DNA from: Chiloscyllium plagiosum
Lineage: Eukaryota
NCBI RefSeq assembly: GCF_004010195.1
Contig: NC_057719.1
Span: forward strand, 24,107,933-24,171,932
Direction: 5' to 3'
DNA: 64,000 nucleotides
Shown: positions 11,602 through 62,109 of the stretch, one piece after another
How the letters are laid out: each line of letters begins with the position of its first letter
Numbering within the stretch: position 1 is the stretch's first letter
Position numbers and translations under genes: made by a program
The notes under the pieces: generated by a model
Told to the model about the DNA's origin: nothing
Database searches by the model: none
What the model saw: only the letters and a program-made list of their open reading frames with translations

Positions 11602-11723
11602 CACTGTCAAACATCACAAGAAGATTTACAATGGTGTCAAATGCAGCAATACGTACACTGCTTCCTTCATCCCGAGCCAACTCTACTAATTCAGGAAGAA
11701 TTGCAGTTTTTGTCTGTTCAACC
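11602..11723 (-). CDS. PPP4R4: PPP4R4 coding exon (~exon 8), 122 bp, phase 2 to 1
   Basis: ttcattatatag|G GTT GAA...GAC AGT G|gtaagt; VEQTKTAILPELVELARDEGSSVRIAAFDTIVNLLVMFDS. Confidence 0.97.
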
Positions 11724-11924: not shown

Positions 11925-13853
11925 GGAGAGTCAATGGGCATTTAAAAAGAGAAAGTGTTAGAAGAGCTAAAAGGTCTAAAAATTAATAAATCCCCTCGCC
12001 CGCATGGGCTACATCCTAGAGTTCTGAGGGAGGTGGCTGAAGAAATAGAGAAGGCGTTGGTTGTAATAAAAATCAGGAGTCAGGGAAAGTCCCAGGTGAT
12101 TGAAAAATTGCTGTTGTAACCCCTTGTTCAGGAAAGAATCAAGACAAAAGATGGAAAATTACAGGCCAATTAGCCTAACCTTAGTTGTAGGTAAAATTCC
12201 AGAACCCATCGTTAAGGATGAGATTTCTAAATTCTTGGAAGTGCAGGGTTGGATTAGAACAAGTCAGCATTGATTTAGTAGATTAGATTAGATTAGATTC
12301 CTTACAGTGTGGAAACAGGCCCTTCAGCCCAACCAGTCCATACCAACCCTCCGAAGAGTAACCCACCCAGAACCATTTCTCTCTGACTAATGCACCTAAT
12401 GCTATGGGCAATTTAGCATGACCAATTCACCTAACCTGCACATTTTTGGACTGTGGGAGGAAACCAGAGCACCCAGAGGAAACCCACACAGACACAGGGA
12501 GAATGTGCGAACTCCACACAGACAGTTGCTCAAGGCTGGAATCGAACCTGGGTCCTTGGTGCTGTGAGGCTTCAGTGCTAACCACTGAACCACCGTGTCA
12601 CCGTAGTCATGCCTGAAAAACCTGTTAGAATTCTTTGAAGAGGTAACAAGTAGGTTAGACCAGGGAAATCAAGTGAATGTTATCTACCTAGACTTCCAAA
12701 AGGCCTTTGATTAGGTGCCTCATGAGGCACCAAGGTGAGGGCCCGTGGTGTTCGAGGAGAGCTACTGGCATGGATTGAGGATTGGCTGACAGACAGCAGA
12801 GAGTTGGGATAAAAGGTTCTTTTGCAGAATGGCAACTAGTAACAAGTGGTGTCCCGCAGGGTTCAGTGTTGGGGCTGCCGCTGTTCACTTTATATATGAA
12901 TGATCTGGATGAAAGGACAGGGGGCATTCTGGTGAAGTTCGCAGATGATATGAGTTAGGCGGAGAGGCAAGTAATTCTGACGAGGTGCGGAGGCTGCAGA
13001 AAGATTTAGATAGTTTAGGAGAGTGGTCCAAGAAATGGCTGATGAAATTCAATATGAGTAAATGCAAGTTCTTACACATTGGAAAAAAGAACACAGGCAT
13101 GGACTATTTTCTAAATGGTGAGAAAATTCATAAAGCCAAAGTACAAAGGGATCTGGGACTGCTAGTTGAGTCCATGGACTTGCAGGTTGAGTCCATGGTT
13201 AAGAATGCAAATGTAATGTTGTCATTTATCTCAGGAGGGTTGGAATGTAACAGCTGCAATATGCTATTGAGACTTTATAAAGCTCTGGTTAGGCCCCATT
13301 TATAATACCTTGTTCAGTTTTGGGCCCCACACCTCAGGAAGGACATATTGGCACTGGAGCGCGTCCAGTGGAGATTCACACGGATGATCCCTGGAATGGT
13401 AGGCCTAACATATGACGAATGGCTGAGGATCCTGGGATTGTATTCATTAGAGTTTAGAAGGTTGAGGGGAGATCTAATAGAAACTTATAAGATAATACAT
13501 GGATTAGAAATGGTGGATGCTGGGAATTTGTTTCCATCAGGCAGGGATACTAGGACCCATGGGCACAGCCTTAGAATTAGAAGGGGCCAATTTAGAACAG
13601 AAATGAGGAGACATTTCTTCAGCCAGAGAGTAGTGGGCCTGTTGAATTCCTTGCCACGGAGCACAGTGGAAGCTAAGGCATTAAGTGTCTTCAAGGCAGA
13701 GATTGATAAATTCTTAATCTTGCAAAGAATTAAGGGATACGGGGAGAATGTGGGTAAGTGGCGTTGAAATGCCCATCTACTATGATTGAATGGCGGAGTG
13801 GACTCGATGGGCCAAATGGCTTACTTCCACTTCTATGTCTTATGGTCTTATGG
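11925..13853 (+). mobile_element. CR1 LINE ORF2 (RT) 3' portion, about 1.6 kb plus a nested SINE
   Basis: RT motifs [22 protein letters not shown]; ORFs 12985..13305 and 13348..13767; tail tatgtcttatggtcttatgg. Confidence 0.92.
12279..12602 (-). mobile_element. HE1-type SINE nested in CR1
   Basis: Reverse complement of SINE head plus (gatta)n tail at 12279-12299. Confidence 0.9.
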
Positions 13854-39368: not shown

Positions 39369-39516
39369 CTGTGTCTCTGTGATCCAAGTTTGCCAATATG
39401 ATTGGGAGAAATGAATGTATATAAGCTGTAATGGAAACTAACTCTTCTTGCAAGATGGTAAGGAAAGAAACCGCAGCAGCTAATTGCATCTCCACCCCTG
39501 CAACATGCAGTACCTC
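39369..39516 (-). CDS. PPP4R4: PPP4R4 coding exon (~exon 4), 148 bp, phase 0 to 1
   Basis: cttttttgtag|GAG GTA...GAC ACA G|gtcagt; EVLHVAGVEMQLAAAVSFLTILQEELVSITAYIHSFLPIILANLDHRDT. Confidence 0.96.
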
Positions 39517-41003: not shown

Positions 41004-42471
41004 AGGGCGGCATGGTGGCTCAGTGGTTAGCACTGTTGCCTCACAGCATCAGGGTAGCAGGTTTGATTCCAGCCTCGAGTGACTGTCTGTGTGGAGTTTG
41101 CACATTCTCCCTGTGTCTATGTGGGTTTCTTCCGAACGCTCTGGTTTTTTTCCCACAGGGTAAAAACAATGACTGCAGATGCTGGAAACCAGATTCTGGA
41201 TCAGTGGTGCTGGAAGAGCACAGCAATTCAGGCAGCATCCGAAAAGCTTCCGACTGGATATTTTTGAAGTGAGGGTTAGGTACTCAGCCCTTTGCAAAAG
41301 TATTTTACAGAATATTCTCATCACTTTACCAAGGTGTTCATGAAAAATATGACTGAGCAAGTAAACACATGCGCGAGACGGCACTTCTGTCTTACTATCG
41401 CGACACTGAGTTCCCGGAAACTGACAAATGCTCCTGCAATCGTAGAAGCCGTTCGGGACCTTGTTTAATGCTGGGATTTCATTCTGGGTTTAGTCCTTCT
41501 TAGTTTAACCTGTAATTTGCAGAATGCAAAGGTTAGTTTGTTTAAATAGCAGACTCATTAAAATGATCGATTTAAACGAATTCTCCAGTGGAGCACCGCG
41601 TTAGATCAGTATGGCTTCCCTTGGTTAAGGTAAAATCGATGATCTAAATAATCAATTATTCGAATGAAATAGTGCTCGCCCATCTCGTTCGGATAATTGA
41701 GGTTCCTCTGTAGTCCTGTCTATCACAAGGTCAGAAGCAGAGATAGTTGTTCACATTTGCAGAGTGTCCAATAGCCATTGCAACTCCACAGATACTGAAA
41801 CAGTCTATTCTAGCCGCTAGTGACCAAGATAGGGTAGATAAAGATAAACGTTCTCCATCGTTGGGGATTTTAGAACTAAGGGGCACAGTCTGAGAAGTTG
41901 GTCCATTCAGGAGAGATGTTAGGAAGCACTTCTACATACAATAGATGGTAGATGTTTGAAACTCTCATCCACAAGTGAAGTGATTGCAGGATCAGTGTCA
42001 ATGTTAGATCTGAGATAGATAATTTTTGTTTATCAAAGGTACGAAGGGATATGGACCAATGGGATATGGAGTTCTGCCACAGATCTGCCCTGATGTGCCC
42101 ACCTCATCCTAGTTTCTAACCTCCAGCAACATGATCCCCTTGACTTGTCCGGACTTGTCCGACCTGCCCAGCTCCTTTTCCACCTATCCACTCCACCCTC
42201 TCCTCCCTGACCTATCACCTTCATCTCCTCCCCCACTGACCTATTGTACTCTATGCTACTCTATCCCCACCCCCACCCTCCTCTAGTTTTTTTCCCACAG
42301 TCCATAGATGTTCAGGTCAGGTGAATTGGTCATGCTAAATTGTCCATAGTGTTAGATGAATTACTCAGAGGGAAATGGGTCTGGATGGGTTACTCTTCGG
42401 AGAGTCGGTGTGGACTGGTTGGCCTGAAGGACCTGTTTCCACACTGTAGGGAATCTAGTCTAATCTAATCT
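41004..42471 (+). mobile_element. HE1-type SINE split into 41004-41158 and 42301-42471 by a 1127-bp insertion
   Basis: SINE sequence resumes in register (cccacag|tccatagatg...) and ends in a (tctaa)n tail. Confidence 0.9.
41159..42285. mobile_element. Composite insertion: PLE 3' end + cargo + probable inverted PLE segment
   Basis: Perfect 15-bp TSD gtttttttcccacag at 41144-41158 and 42286-42300; 41159-41242 is the exact reverse complement of 61516-61599. Confidence 0.85.
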
Positions 42472-42623
42472 TAACACAGTTGTTTCCAATCCAGGTTTCT
42501 CACTCTCAATCTGAATGCTAAATTTTACAATATTATGATCACCAGGAGATCTTTTATTCTAGGATCAGTTACTAAACATTACCAGATCCAAAATATCCTG
42601 ATCACTGGTTGAAATCCACAGTA

Positions 42624-42797
42624 CAGAGGAACCTCGATTATCTAAAGAACACAGGCAGGGAGTATTTTGTTCGGTTCAGCGAATTCCGGATAATCAAATG
42701 ACAGATAATATAGTTTAGACAAGCACTTGGACCTTGGTATCTTGCCCGATAATCTGATATTCGGATAATCGAATGTCAGATAATCGAGGTTCCTCTG
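42624..42797. mobile_element. Tigger/pogo-type MITE, 174 bp
   Basis: Perfect 20-bp TIRs cagaggaacctcgattatct; TA on both sides; the same TIR recurs at 41691-41710. Confidence 0.92.
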
Positions 42798-44258
42798 TAT
42801 ATTTTTCTCGCATATTGTTCTGAATACACCTGATGAATTGTTCTGAATATACCTGATGAATTCTTCTTCATGGATACCTTTGCCAATTTGTTTTTCTCAA
42901 TCGACAAGATTAAAGTCACCCATGATTAATGTACCATCTGTTTTATATAGCTTCACTATCTTCTGATATATTCTTTGTCCCACAGAACACCTTCTGTTAG
43001 GGGACATACAGACTACTCCTATTTCTTACCTCTAGCCATTTGGATTCTGCATCATCCAAATCAAGAATATTTCTTGCTATTACACCGATTGTATCTCATA
43101 CTAACAAAATTATGTCATCACTCTTCCTTTTCTGCATAAACTTTTAAAATCTCACATGCAGACATAAAATTGGATTAGACGCAGATCTCTCCTCGTCAGA
43201 ATGCTCCCCAGAATCAGAGGCACTTTTGTGTTGTTTTTTAGTTCTAATCATTTAATCTGGTATTCACCTTCCATCTTCTTTTCATTTGCCTGAAATACCC
43301 TCTCTTTATCCTCTCTGTAGTGCTCTTGATTGTTTCTTTTCAAAATTTCCATTTCCTTTTCTATTTCAAGCTATTCCTCTGCAAGCAGTTACAACCAGTC
43401 ATTAATTTCTAGGAAGCAAGAATCTTCATTATACTCACAACTAACTTGCATTTGAATATGGGATGCTGTAACTTGCAAGGCAATGGACCAAGTGCTGGAA
43501 GATGCAGATAGGCAGGATAGGTATGTTTTGACCAGCACAGACAAGTTAAACACACGGATCTCGTCTATTTGGACTATCTCTGACTTTATGATGCATTCAG
43601 CTTAATAGCTATGATGACATTGGTGGGCTTTGAAGTATCAAGGATATTACGATCCCACAATTGCAGCAGTCATCCTTTGATATTACATTTTATGTCATCA
43701 CTTATCATATATTGTCACATGCATCATCTTAATGGATTCAATAAATGGTGGCATGTTGCACATTTTCCCAAGTGCCTATTGTGCTTGTCTACCATAGAAG
43801 TCGTCTATATTTTGTTTCAATACTGTTAGATGTGAAAAACCTACTCACTTAAGAGTGAAGAAGACCAAATTTTGTCCATGTTTTGAAATACAAGAGCAGA
43901 AGAGAGAAACAATGATTATTCAGCTTCTCCATTTAAATTAGAAATGATTGTAGAGCTAAGTAAAAGTAAGGCTTTAGAATTCCAAATGCTTTTGAAATTC
44001 CAACTTTTCAGGTGCCCACTTGGTGTTTTAACATTTAATTATCTAACAGCATCTACAGGGCTAACAGACAGGGTATATAATTTAGTGCCTGCCAACAAAT
44101 GTAATACAGATATATAATGATTTCTGAAATAGGTCAGGGCTGGGATCAGACATGATTTCATATGGGTCTGCAAGAGGCATTTTATTGGAGCTGGGCCATT
44201 GCAGGTCACAATTTCAATTAAGCAAAATTTGATTCCTTAAGCGCAAGTTGCCACTTAC

Positions 44259-47975: not shown

Positions 47976-49355
47976 TCAGGTTGTAAGCTTGCTCGCTGAG
48001 CTGGAAGGTTTCTTTTCAGACGTTTCACCATCATACTAGGTAACATTATCAGTGAGCCTCTGGTGAAGCGCTAGTATTGTGTCCCACTTTCTATTTATAT
48101 GTCTTGGTTTCTGAAGGTGGGTGATATCATTTCTGGTTCCTTTTCTCAGAGGATGGTAGGTGGGGTCCAAATTGACATGTTTATTGATGGAGTGCCGGTT
48201 GGAATGCCAGGCCTCCAGGAATTCTCGTGCATGTCTCTGTTTAGCTTGTCCAAGAATGGATGTGTTGTCCCAGTCAAAGTGGTGTCCTTCTTCGTCTATA
48301 TATAAGGATACTAGTGATAGTGGATCATGTCTTTTGGTGACTAGTTGGTGTTCATGTATCCTGGTGGCTAGTTTTCTGCTGTTCGTCTGTTATTACAAAA
48401 GAAGAGGAGAATAACAACAGACTCCCATTCCTAGATGTCACAGTAGAACAACCAGTTAATGGTGAACTTCAAACCAACATCTACAGGAAAACAACACACA
48501 CAGACCAATACTTAACTACAGAAGCAATCATCCCAACACCCACAAACAGAGCTGTATCAGGACATTATTTCACCAAGCCACAACACACTGCAGCACCCAG
48601 GATGTACAAACAGCAAAGGAAAAATACCTATTCAGCATATTCAAAAAGAACAGGTACCCAAAACACAGTCCACTGATTTCTCAATAACAAACTCAAACAA
48701 GCAGACACAACATGCCCAGAAATTCTAGTTGCATTACCTTACATCAAAAACATATCAGAAATTACTTCCAGACTACTCAGACCTTTTGGCATCATGGTAG
48801 CCCACAAACCTACAACACACTTAAACAGCGACTAATGAACCTAAAGGATCAGATACAAACAACCAGCAAAGCTAATGTCCTTTACAAAATACCATGCAAG
48901 GACTGTAACAAATAGTAAATCAGAAAAACAGGCAGCAAACTAGCCACCAGGATACATGAACACTAACTAGCCACCAAAAGACATGACCCACTATCACTAG
49001 TATCCTTATATACAGACGGAGAAGGACACCAGTTTGACTGGAACAACACATCTATCCTAGGGCAAGCTAAACAAAGACATGCACGAGAATTCCGAGAGAC
49101 CTGGCATTCTAACCAGAATTCCATCAATAAACACATCAATTTGTACCCCGTCTACCATCCTCTGAGAAAAAGAACTGGAAATGATATCACCCACTTTAAG
49201 AAACCAAAACACAAACAGAAAGCAGGACATAACACCAGCACTTCACCAGATGCTCACTGATAGTACTTAGTGTGGTGATAAAACATCTGAAAACAAACCT
49301 TCCAGCTGCAAGCAAATCTACAACCAGAAGCTAAGCTACAAATCTTCTCAAAAAT
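47976..49355 (+). mobile_element. Penelope element, 5'-truncated, with inverted 3'-end copy (47976-48388, minus strand)
   Basis: EEENNNRLPFLDV..IYRKTTHTD (RT C-terminus/thumb), NVLYKIPCKDC..TG.KLATRIHEH (GIY-YIG); left 0.4 kb is the reverse complement of the 3' end; decayed hammerhead at ~48016-48056 (minus: tca-ctgataa...gaaa-cgtc-tga). Confidence 0.9.
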
Positions 49356-55928: not shown

Positions 55929-56143
55929 CTCAACCTTTATTCAGAAAGGTTGAGAGATTTATGAAACATTCACAAAAGTGAGTAATGGGTTGGAGTTGGT
56001 GGAGGATGGTATGGGGGGTTGGGGTTGGTGATGGTTAGGGACAGCAATGATGAAAGAACATACTGTCAAACCGAAAATAACAAACAATTCAGTTAAAAAT
56101 CACACAACACCAGGTTATAGTCCAACAGGTTTAATTGGAAGCA

Positions 56144-56178
56144 CACTAGCTTTCAGAGCAACGCTCCTTCATCAGGTG
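56144..56178 (-). ncRNA. Minimal type I hammerhead ribozyme motif (sense to PPP4R4 pre-mRNA)
   Basis: CAC-CUGAUGA-A-GGAGC-GUU-GCUCU-GAAA-GCUA-GUG. Confidence 0.75.
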
Positions 56179-56272
56179 ATAGTAGAGGGCTCAATCCCAA
56201 CACAGAATTTATAGCAAAACTTTATAGCAAAAATTGCTATAAATTCTGTGTTGGGATTGAGCCCTCCACTAT

Positions 56273-56307
56273 CACCTGATGAAGGAGCGTCGCTCCGAAA
56301 GCTAGTG
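56273..56307 (+). ncRNA. Minimal type I hammerhead ribozyme motif
   Basis: CAC-CUGAUGA-A-GGAGC-GUC-GCUCC-GAAA-GCUA-GUG; predicted cleavage after A56304. Confidence 0.8.
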
Positions 56308-58570
56308 TGCTTCCAATTAAACCTGTTGGACTATAACCTGGTGTTGTGTGATTTTTAACTTTGTCCACCCCAGTCCAACACCGGTATCTCCAAATCATGA
56401 ATACAATTCAGAAAAGACCCAAAAGTAAAATTATGAACAAACAAAATAATTTTCGTTGTTACAACGAAAAATTACGTCCACCTGCACTTCGTATTAGGTG
56501 AAGCAGTGACATGGGGAAAATAGGATTGAGCCCAACCATGATCGATTGTAAACTTCAAATGCAATAAAATCTGGAATTGGAAGCTAGCCTAATGGTTGGT
56601 TGTTATACAAAAAGAAGGTTCAGTAATGTTCCTTAGGGAAGGAAATCTACCATCCTTACCCAATCTTGCATATATGTGACTCCAGATGCAAAACTTTGGC
56701 TAACTCTTTTCTGCCCTCCAAAATGAAGAAGTTTCAAGAAGATAAGAGATGGGATTTTTGGCTTAATTACGAGAAGATTCAGACTTTGAATGGACTAGGA
56801 GGCCTCTATAGTATTAGTTGCCTAGAAATCCTAGTTGGACCGAGAATTCTGATTTACAGACCCAAGGTTCAAGTAAAGATGATACCCTGAAACTGCAAGA
56901 GTTGCTCTTAAAATCCCAACTTAGTACAAGTCCCTGGGAACCTCTAAGAGTATTTCAAACTACCTGGTAAAACTTTAAAACACAATCATAGTTTTTTCTT
57001 AAGACCTGAATTCAAGTTGGTTGGAATCCGAACTATCATCAATCTTCAACGGATAGCAATTAAGCTTCATTGAGAGAGTAGACATGACAACTCATTAAAT
57101 TCTATCCTTTGTTTTTTGAGGAGAAAGTCCTTTTTCCCCTACTCTTTATGCCCAAAAAAATCTCTGCAGAGACTTGTCTCATGTTTTATGAATGCGTCTG
57201 TGTACAAAACTAAGGCAATAGAATTTTAATTTTGGATCACAGTTTAGGAATTAGCCAGTGTTTGCCACTGAATAAGTGTTTTTTTCCACAATAAACAGGC
57301 TATTTTCAGTTAACTAAAGAAGCCTGCTGGATGTTTATTTTAATCTGCAAAGTATTACAAACCAGATCATTTTAATAATTGACTCAACACATATATAGTA
57401 ATGGTGCGATGGTGTAGTTGGGCTCAATTATCAGTGGACTCTTGCCATCACAGTCATAACATAGCTTGGGGGCTTGGAACAACTTGACAGACAGCAGATT
57501 CATAACACTAAACCTTTCCACCATCACCCCCATAAACTCAAGGAGGAAGAGTGAAAGGAAGACAAGTACCTGGGGTAAGGAAGGGACAGATAGGAATACC
57601 CCAAGAATTCCTCCTCAGACTGGAAAGGAAGGTGCTGAGGGTAGGAATAAAAAAATCAAAGGCCAAAGTGTTTCTGCCTCATTTACTCTAATAAAGTGGT
57701 ACACCTTTATTTAGAATGCTTAAAGTTGCAATTGAAACCTATTGGGATTTGTACAAATGATTCCAACAGAAGAGACCAACATGAAAAGCATCAAGTTGTA
57801 GCTATAACTGCAAGACCAAAGGTAGATACTGCAGGAGAGGAGAATAAGCTATTTCTATTGGCTTTTCTATTTTTATTTCTTTCACAATTTTCTCCTGCAT
57901 CTGTAAGAACAGTGAAATCATAATTTATGACGAGTCTGCTTATTTAACAGATAATTTTAACAACTTCAATATTTTATTTCTTGATCTTCAGTATCTGGCA
58001 AAGTAGGCCGTTTTCCTCCCTTTGTCTCCCTATGACTAGTACTTAGCCAGTACAGACACAATGGGTCGAATGGCCTCTTTCTTTACTGTAAAATTCTATG
58101 ATTATTTGTGGGATAGTTGATACACTTAGCTTTTAAACTTAAACACAAGTTAGTGGAAATGTACATTTGAACATTTCATAAGTCTACAATAGTTCACAAC
58201 ATTTCTAGTGTTTAGTCAAGCACAAAGAAGCTGCAGCATACAATATTCAATTGGTTAGATCCCCATGACTTCCCCTTTAAGCACCAGCATAAAAGTTCAC
58301 ATCATATCATTCAAAGGCTCTTAACAAATCATCAAACAAATAGCTATAACAAACTGGAACATCCTGTGACTTGATTTTTAACCAAAACAGGTGTTCTTCT
58401 AAAGTATTTTGTTAAATTATTTCTAATGTCAATTAAAATGTCATATTTTCCACTTACACATTATTTAACTTTTATAAACTTACTCAGTCTCAATATCATG
58501 CAACATTGTTCATGGATAGCCAAAAGCACCCAGAATTAGAGATAACTGTACATAACCTGCAAACTGATTT

Positions 58571-59640: not shown

Positions 59641-61463
59641 GAATGCAAATAACCTAAACAAACACAATCCGTTATCTGAATTAGCAAACTTCCATTTAGG
59701 GGCAAATGAAAACGTATCCTTGGTTCAAAAAACATCCAACCCTGATTTTGTTGCATTAATGGTGAGTACGCTTCCAGCAACAAATTCCAACATCAGTATA
59801 TTCACAGCAAAATGCAAAAATCAAAGGTGCTGTGCGAGTTGCTCTGTTCCTCCAAAAGCAGTGCTATACTGGTATTTTGATAAGAAGCTCACACTGAACC
59901 ACATGGAGTTGCAGTGCTTGCCCTACAGATAGCAACTAAACATGCTAGAGAAACTTGCCGCTTCTTCATTCAAATACAAGTTAACTTGTCAAGACGTGCT
60001 AAGTTTCAACAACAAACAACAAACACCTTAGGCAATGAAACTTCACTGCCAAATTGTAGAACTGCATTCCATCAAATTTCAATTGTTGTTGGGATTTCTT
60101 TGAAAAATAAATCAGGTTTTCTTGGTATTCTTTCGCTGTCTTTAACCAATCTTCTTTTTCTTGCATTTATTTTGCTTTCTGTTAATGGTTTAACACTGAA
60201 TTCAATATCCTAACTTATACTTCCTTGTTTAGACTCTGTGTAGCTCATGTTCTGTCTAAGTTAACAAACCTTTTCTTGCCCATTCCCCAGGTCCCAGTAA
60301 TCATGTCAAGAGAGTTATTTTATTCAGGATTACTATTAGCTGCACATATCAATGTAAAAGCACATAGCAAGCCTGTTGGCAAGTATAACCACAATGAAGT
60401 ATGTAGGTTATTTGGTCACTACTTCTCAGAGTTTACAAACTCGCAAGATAAACAGAATACCATATTAAACAGGTTTCAATTAGAAGTTCCTGGATTTGAT
60501 TTTAAAAGCTTATGGGAAACACATCTAGCTTGGAAAAGAAGGGGTTATTTTTAGGATTCAGTCTGGGACAGTTCTACAGAGGTCTTGGATGAAGATGAAT
60601 TTATAAAGCAACTTTTCTCAGAAAGGAGAAAATAGTTAGATTTCTTAATAAATTACTTTAGAAAAAAAAAGTTTAGTAATAGTGTCAGACCAGGAGTATT
60701 TAGGTAAAACCCTAAACTAGTCTTATGAGGACTGAGAACATTGAAGTTCAGGTGTATGAAGGTTCCTGGAAAATGCTATCAGATGTTCCAGGCTGGGAAT
60801 GGAATTCATGTTAAATCAATTGTTAGAGAAGGAAATCTTTCTCTGGTGTAAGTACTATACAAGATGTGCTTTTGGGTACTATATAGGGATGTTTTTGGAA
60901 TCACTGAAGCAGCATATAGGGGATTAATGATATGTTACCATGTGCTTCAAAATCTTTAAGTTTCTATTATAAATTTAAACTGTAAATAGGCTGACTTATT
61001 CTATTTTAGCTTCATTTCTTTGGCTTCTATTTTATTGTTAAACTCAGTTCTACAATACTGAGTGCTTGTTCTTCAGTAGGAATCTACCTGTTAAAACTAA
61101 AATAAAACATGGTCAATTAAGACAGATTTTAGTCTGGGATCTGACTTGTCCACTACTGACATCAGCTGAAATTATAACACTTGTTTTTACCAATGGAATC
61201 ACAACACAAAATGTTTACTTTTTTCAAACAAAAATAAACATTATTATATTTTAAAGGTTTAACCATAACAAACATTATTCATTTAACATATCTAGAAACT
61301 ATACACAATTCAGAATTACTTCCTATTTCCAAAAAGATTTTCCTTCTACGACATATCAATCTTATGGGATCATCCATATGTCTGTTGCGGTCCGTTGGAG
61401 AGTTTTCTTCAGTTCCAGCTATTCTCAGAAGTAAAACTGCCATTCAACTTATTTATACTACAG

Positions 61464-61603
61464 GGTATTATTCCTGATGAAGGGCTTTTGCCCAAAACGT
61501 CGATTTTGCCTGTCCTCGGATGCTGCCTGAATTGCTGTGCTCTTCCAGCACCACTGATCCAGAATCTGGTTTCCAGCATCTGCAGTCATTGTTTTTACCT
61601 CCT
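61464..61603 (+). mobile_element. 140-bp PLE 3'-end insertion (family C) starting at a hammerhead motif
   Basis: 15-bp TSD ttatttatactacag at 61449-61463 and 61604-61618; CUGAUGA-AGGGC-UUUU-GCCC-AAAA-CGUC at 61474-61501. Confidence 0.88.
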
Positions 61604-62109
61604 TTATTTATACTACAGACCTTGTTCTGGTTACTTTTCCAGTATTCCCATGCTAATCAGCTGGCTACTTTCAAATGCAATAAGACACTGAGGTCTACCA
61701 GCAGCTTTAAAATTAGGGAACTTCCCAATTTCTGATCCTCCATAAAATTCAATTTGAAATTAAGCCTCACCCACCGTTCACATGTTCAATGGTGAAGTCA
61801 GTGCTTTCACTATCATTTATCTTGGCTAACTTCTCTCAGGTGAGTCCAAACTGCAACCCTAGATTGAAACATGAAATGCTTCCTGAGCTCCACTTATCTC
61901 CATGATGTAATGACCTAATTTGGACCATCCACAACTGACAATGTCTCCAAGTAGGTCAGGCCTTTTTTTGTTTGTTCTTTTCCCTTCTGACTCTTTAAAC
62001 AAAAATGAGTAGCCTTCTGCATTTCCATTGCTTTAGGCGTTCTGATAGTCCACTCAAGCCTTGCATCTTAATTACTTTACCTTCATAACAATATTTTTAA
62101 AGATTTATT

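Follow-up and report, generated by a model that had tools for sequence, protein, structure and literature searches.

The window analysed here is a stretch of 64,000 nucleotides from Chiloscyllium plagiosum (NC_057719.1, positions 24,107,933 to 24,171,932); coordinates below are those of the window, and features lie on its plus strand unless stated otherwise. In the reference assembly, from which alone the structure is known, a SINE that we take to be HE1 is interrupted by a 1127-bp insert (41159-42285). The left half of the SINE (41005-41158) aligns to other SINE copies of the window and ends in a 15-bp target-site duplication (TSD; 41144-41158), identical at 15/15 bases to the duplication on the right side of the insert (42286-42300). 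The right TSD also matches the Penelope-like element (PLE) described below, around its position -163, at 10/15 bases with one gap. Rejoined in silico, the left half and the right half (42301-42471) form one alignment of 319 columns, with 86.5% identity to the copy at 12280-12597. The original prediction of a SINE split by 1127 bp within a perfect TSD was therefore correct.

The insert begins with 92 bp of the 3' end of a PLE on the minus strand (41159-41250), which cover positions -91 to 0 of the family end and are of subtype B. All 40 scored candidates in a search of the same genome matched these 92 bases in full. Next comes the cargo. Its first part (41251-41712) is the right 460 bp of a 636-bp TIR element, presumably Tigger-like, plus TA; the TIR ends at 41710 and the TA occupies 41711-41712. 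The second part (41713-42094) contains a spacer and an old 3' piece that we assume to be CR1-like. Three more bases (42095-42097), found in 0/29 other PLE copies, precede the right arm. The sequence 42098-42285 is PLE from the ORF stop onwards, running in the opposite direction to the left arm; its first 32 bp (42098-42129) are common to the donor PLE, described below, and subtype B, while 42130-42285 (-319 to -164) are subtype B. Both arms are thus of subtype B, which is compatible with one RNA molecule, and about 72 PLE bases, including the putative hammerhead core, are absent between them. The claim that the rightmost 190 bp or so derive from a PLE in inverse orientation to the left end was borne out. 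The left end was also rightly recognized as a PLE 3' end, but the arm had been drawn too short, since the cargo starts at 41251 and not at 41243. Unrelated host DNA lies between pLTR pieces within one TSD, and the TSD, the inverted arm head-to-head with the 3' arm and the internal deletion compose the layout defined for L1 twin priming.

Other features were observed around the insert. Another member of the cargo's MITE family, short, intact and with both TIRs, lies between TA dinucleotides just to the right of the SINE, at 42620-42800. Long inverted repeats are present at 56091-56360 (127 bp, 98%, 16 bp between) and 48100-49211 (280 bp, 89%). An exon scan of the window covered 8 candidates. 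Two exon-like stretches on the minus strand (39370-39516 and 11603-11722), one of them with a weak HEAT hit, presumably resemble PPP4R4, and suggest that a minus-strand gene probably carries the insert in an intron. As the cargo is non-coding, no effect on a gene is claimed.

A second PLE copy is found in the window at 61466-61599. As originally predicted, 41159-41242 is the exact reverse complement of its bases 61516-61599 (84/84). This is, however, an independent short copy of a third subtype, which explains why the match ends after 84 bp, and it was rejected as the source of the left arm because its subtype differs. It has its own TSD of about 15 bp (window 61448-61618). The segment had been described as a hammerhead-bearing PLE end; the PLE end was correct, but in this copy the G of the hammerhead GAAA is replaced by A, and no Rfam hammerhead was found in the window or at the donor. 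Words of a putative hammerhead core and a short stem are visible in copies of the family, and a minimal hammerhead has been described in the pLTR of PLEs (PMC4209133).

The family copy L034 has a Pfam GIY-YIG match of 25 bits (cut-off 22.6), which is C-terminal and upstream of the 3' repeat, and its stop codon falls at the start of the right-arm sequence. A linker motif C-X4-C-X2-C was detected in L026, L034 and L037, and a CX2-5CxxC motif in the linker that joins RT to EN is given as a mark of Neptune/Nematis (PMC8557442). Judged by this motif and the GIY-YIG domain, the family is probably of Neptune/Nematis type. L063 contains a 139-aa piece that is RT-like by eye, with no Pfam hit. Copies end at 0 and at about -35, as with an optional tail of 30-40 bp, and inverted 5'-truncated copies with a TSD are present. 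Arms that follow non-PLE bases and begin 35 bases before the family end gave 658 pattern matches genome-wide, and the first 90 of the 100 loci listed among these were examined. Head-to-head arms ending at 0 and -35 within one TSD of 11-16 bp were found in 31 of the 90, a proportion that is no genome-wide rate since the loci were picked for the -35 arm. The remaining loci comprise 7 with both arms for which no TSD was found, 19 with a TSD and another layout, 27 with no TSD and 6 mutated normal ends. The head-to-head arms fit the extension of both strands from two start sites obtained in vitro with a PLE protein. In many double-arm insertions (L084-L113, L126-L185) the arms overlap, both containing the bases from about -83 to -35; for this, two templates or the two repeats of a single RNA are required.

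The source of the cargo was searched for in the same genome, a test set beforehand in the original prediction. The query 41243-42094 has one other full match, on the minus strand of C11 (C11:6977413-6978256; locus L002), with 100% identity (40 scored of 5637 candidates); the other 38 scored matches cover the MITE alone, at 79-83%. An exhaustive pattern search located the cargo end, at up to one mismatch, in two places genome-wide, the window and this donor. The outcome was the predicted one: a single donor that is nearly identical, shares the MITE-spacer-CR1 junctions and also has the left TIR that the insert lacks. Over the 879 bp of 41251-42129 insert and donor differ at 0 positions, and the cargo proper (41251-42097) accounts for 847 of these bases. 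At the donor the MITE is whole, with 176 bp more and a left TIR. The description of the insert's MITE as one-ended, with a single TIR and TA, therefore stands, but it was cut by copying and not by age.

At the donor, a 358-bp PLE fragment splits the CR1-like piece, the rest of which lies past the fragment. In organism B, which differs by about 4% in this region, a contig of run X13 connects the two flanks with no such fragment between them, and contigs of runs X1 and X2 (organism A) cross the ends of the fragment. The donor layout and the empty site in X13 give the order of events: old repeats, then the donor PLE fragment, then the capture. Bases 42095-42097 fall within the 358 bp missing from the empty site and were brought by the donor's own PLE insertion; their presence in the insert means that the donor junction itself (F/P1) was copied. 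In PLE sense the donor reads F-P1-P2-P3, and on the window minus strand the insert reads TSD, reversed P1, reversed F, P3, TSD, with P2 missing. This order is the layout expected of two cDNAs growing toward each other from both target ends. A tandem array with a unit of about 23 bp (L002:3364-3844) lies about 1 kb upstream of the donor MITE. The insert's inversion joint was not found among the joints listed on the donor in public runs. In run X1, a single contig passes the branch point without a break and in the donor form alone; an individual lacking the insert would give such a contig, but the observation proves nothing.

The PLE-only parts of the insert do not follow the donor. They differ from the donor PLE at 8/248 positions, against 0/879 in the donor-identical part (Fisher p = 5e-6). 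Five differences are in the right arm (42130, 42132-42134 and 42285) and three in the left arm (41202, 41243 and 41244), and most of the eight are linked subfamily markers. Among 30 copies, the insert-type second marker was present in 0/13 with the donor-type first marker and in 12/16 with the insert-type first marker. The exact first marker of the insert occurs 19 times; 13 of the 18 other copies reach the second site, where 12 are insert-type, one is a third type and none is donor-type. Three other subtype-B copies match 42098-42285 with 0 differences. In classical transduction the element part matches the source element beside the flank, which is not the case here: since both arms differ from the donor PLE and match another subfamily, plain read-through transduction fails. 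We infer that donor sequence, which extends leftward, gives way to subtype B, which is present from 42130, within the 32 identical bases 42098-42129. This discordance between arms and donor supports the template switching by PLE that had been proposed from the window.

We interpret the locus, with a probability of roughly 0.7, as one young PLE insertion that acquired an exact 847-base copy by priming from both target ends on a subtype-B RNA and by a homology-guided switch onto the PLE fragment resident at the donor. The endonuclease would nick the target strands 15 nt apart, and both nicked ends would prime reverse transcription on subtype-B PLE RNA. The first primer would start at the usual end of the family (0) and stop at -91. 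The second would start internally, at -164 against the usual -35, perhaps aided by partial pairing with the target end; this pairing ranks 4 of 584 by identity and 137 of 582 by duplex energy. The second cDNA would extend to between -320 and -351, re-anneal to the donor PLE fragment, copy the donor junction and 844 flank bases, and stop inside the MITE. The two cDNA 3' ends would then be joined at 41250/41251, without clear microhomology. The capture model proposed earlier had the single switching event, but missed the guiding PLE fragment of the donor, the two-end priming and a precedent in a rotifer that is found in the available text of PMC3846280.

As template at the donor, we lean somewhat towards a read-through RNA rather than the chromosome. 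The last coding exon of a latrophilin gene is 51 kb from the donor on the same strand, and as the donor lies beyond this gene, read-through would give the needed polarity. This polarity, together with one other cargo that was taken 16 times and would suit an abundant transcript, favours RNA, while a DNA template is favoured by the distance of 51 kb, which is far for read-through, and by the invasion of homologous DNA by cDNA described for L1 (bioRxiv 10.1101/2024.08.27.596794). Among the 19 candidates of a donor-side exon scan, 2 are latrophilin exons, and no gene spanning the donor was found. In one poly(A) single-cell RNA run, sampled at about 2 in 100, depth over the cargo was below 1, too thin for strand or level, and the strand skew around the donor is near zero and uninformative. 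Among the public runs listed as sharing the sequence there was no RNA run, the best share of words being 0.45, which speaks neither for nor against transcription.

Other cargos were found in the family. In the 60 loci examined, L074 has about 1 kb of non-PLE DNA between arms inside a TSD, and this second cargo was found in 16 places among 40 scored. Its last 355 bases are identical in 16/16, and it lies upstream of PLE ends, with the far side trimmed to varied lengths. It is joined to four PLE subtypes at six junction positions spread over 26 bases, with the register kept in 16/16. A single source element cannot produce four subtypes and six junctions, and repeated homology-anchored switching can. 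The end on the PLE side is constant while the opposite one varies, which indicates that synthesis proceeded from the arm to the cargo. Loci L082, L081 and L122 have the same layout of arm, cargo, arm and TSD as the insert. Across loci L076-L083 and L114-L123 (e.g. C15:42.052-42.056 Mb) the second cargo is up to 3.3 kb long, with a far part that is LTR-like by eye. The repeat to which it belongs forms a cluster on contig C8; the source locus of the cargo was looked for and not found. Assembly N gaps are frequent at PLEs, so that the identity between repeated copies, including those of the second cargo, may have been flattened by the assembler, but distinct junctions and end points cannot have been.

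More than 60 unexplained bases inside a candidate TSD were detected in 7 of the 90 loci. Two of these contain non-PLE cargo (L126 and L151), three contain sequence of other PLE loci (L113, L153 and L162) and two are likely chance TSDs (L090 and L164). At L126:445-800 (C1:124.94 Mb), about 330 bases of an element bearing tandem repeats lie between the inverted arm and about 19 bases of PLE end, within an 11-bp TSD; the nearest copies of this cargo are 97-99% identical. The third cargo, at L151, is matched in full by 40/40 scored candidates and thus has at least 40 identical copies, and the 14 loci examined all have one junction and one subtype. Its unit (L151, L036, L196-L207) is composed of about 724 non-PLE bases and the last 165 PLE bases, with a sharp 5' end that is often joined to internal PLE sequence. 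This third cargo is a fixed non-autonomous family.

These cargos bear on the other explanations of the insert. The first is a plain 5' transduction, in which a transcript running from flank into PLE was twin-primed as one RNA, and either gene conversion later changed the donor to subtype A or a third source is unassembled or lost. The order TSD, inverted part, missing piece, 3' end and TSD is the product of one twin-primed RNA, judging from the accessible part of the L1 study (bioRxiv 10.1101/2024.08.27.596794), and the genome does contain a fixed cargo family in which 14/14 loci examined share junction and subtype. Conversion would nevertheless have to span about 270 bp, and to follow an event recent enough for 879 bp to be unchanged, no third locus was found at up to one mismatch, and the many subtypes on the second cargo are impossible from one source. 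We regard this explanation as unlikely.

Alternatively, a single cDNA could have used antisense templates, jumping without homology from PLE RNA to an antisense donor transcript and from there to an antisense subtype-B PLE RNA, before annealing to the other target end. The final sequence would be the same, the TSD partly matches the PLE at -163, and antisense templates have been proposed for PLEs in the part of the rotifer study available (PMC3846280). Such a path requires two antisense templates and a homology-free jump. The fixed PLE-side end and variable far end of the second cargo point instead to synthesis from arm into cargo, and the gene found near the donor lies on the sense side, all of which makes this path rather improbable.

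An assembly artefact, where a gap between real PLE arms was filled by a false path through the donor flank, is in our judgement still less credible. N between arms is common (5/31 double-arm loci), and no independent read or contig was seen across the insert. On the other hand, a false path would have had no homology to follow at the joint 41250/41251, the subfamily haplotype is consistent across the arms and unlike that of the donor, and cargo inserts bounded by a TSD, with end points of their own, are present at many other loci. Stepwise nesting of MITE and CR1 pieces into a PLE at the site, in favour of which nothing was found, is very hard to sustain, as all of the middle part is identical to one uninterrupted stretch of a donor where these elements are longer and are older than the donor PLE. 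Later nested insertions and a multi-copy cargo were both rejected, as had been predicted in favour of a single capture, by the one donor and the two copies of the cargo end genome-wide.

If two-end priming with a homology-guided switch explains the insert, it may be a habit of the family. We put at about even the chance that homology-guided, retrovirus-like strand transfer is routine in this PLE family, with any of thousands of scattered end fragments serving as a handle for capturing the DNA upstream. It would then be a standing route for interchromosomal duplication in the vertebrate germ line, and captured pieces could become new non-autonomous families, as one cargo with at least 40 copies would illustrate. 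Short PLE fragments would not be inert: through them, neighbouring DNA would be copied from one chromosome to another, and the resulting duplications would be misread as nested repeats. How PLEs finish their insertions and move host DNA in trans is an open question in the literature examined. This locus records the donor, the putative switch window and both priming sites within one kilobase, and makes of the finding in the rotifer a mechanism that can be tested, namely strand transfer at shared end fragments.

Retroviruses capture cellular RNA by copy-choice, and in cultured cells Gilbert et al. reportedly obtained, in 2005, chimeras in which new L1 cDNA is joined to L1 copies already resident. 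In both systems, new cDNA takes a resident homologous copy as its handle and continues on that copy, similarly to the process proposed here. They concern viruses or cultured cells, whereas the insert is a germ-line PLE insertion.

The insert also resembles L1 twin priming, and "twin priming and switching", where both target ends prime, an inverted arm and an internal deletion are formed, internally primed cDNA switches and a TSD results (bioRxiv 10.1101/2024.08.27.596794, in the sections available). Unlike L1, it has no poly(A) and uses internal start sites, and the L1 switches described there remain on the same RNA. Templated pieces in L1 are typically below 250 bp and come from within 15 bp of the site, according to the same sections, while here 847 bp came from another contig, so that the insert is not a local templated insertion of the L1 type. 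The purified Poseidon PLE protein from anole, which was modelled as a dimer, cuts the two strands of the target and extends both, with synthesis beginning at two internal start sites (Frangieh et al. 2024, PMC11167929, available text). The likeness includes the two start sites that define the tail, the extension of both strands and the lack of homology at the usual start, although Poseidon belongs to another clade than the family of the insert.

The closest precedent is the rotifer Adineta vaga, where an intron-bearing gene and other host DNA lie between Penelope pLTRs with TSDs (Arkhipova et al. 2013, PMC3846280, available text). No vertebrate case of host-DNA capture by PLEs was found in our search of openly accessible papers, and the accessible parts of bioRxiv 10.64898/2026.07.22.740005 and PMC9977147 add nothing on capture. 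As in A. vaga, unrelated host DNA lies here between pLTR pieces, one of them inverted, within one TSD, and the pLTRs would act in cis with the enzyme in trans (PMC3846280). The systems differ in that the present host is a vertebrate, the linker is of Neptune/Nematis type and the cargo is non-coding. In addition, the text available for the rotifer reports neither an identical single donor nor a subfamily test (PMC3846280), while here a donor at 0/879 differences and arms of another subfamily localise the switch. Capture of host DNA by PLEs is thus already known in a rotifer, and in this shark the likely jump is narrowed to a window of 32 bases.
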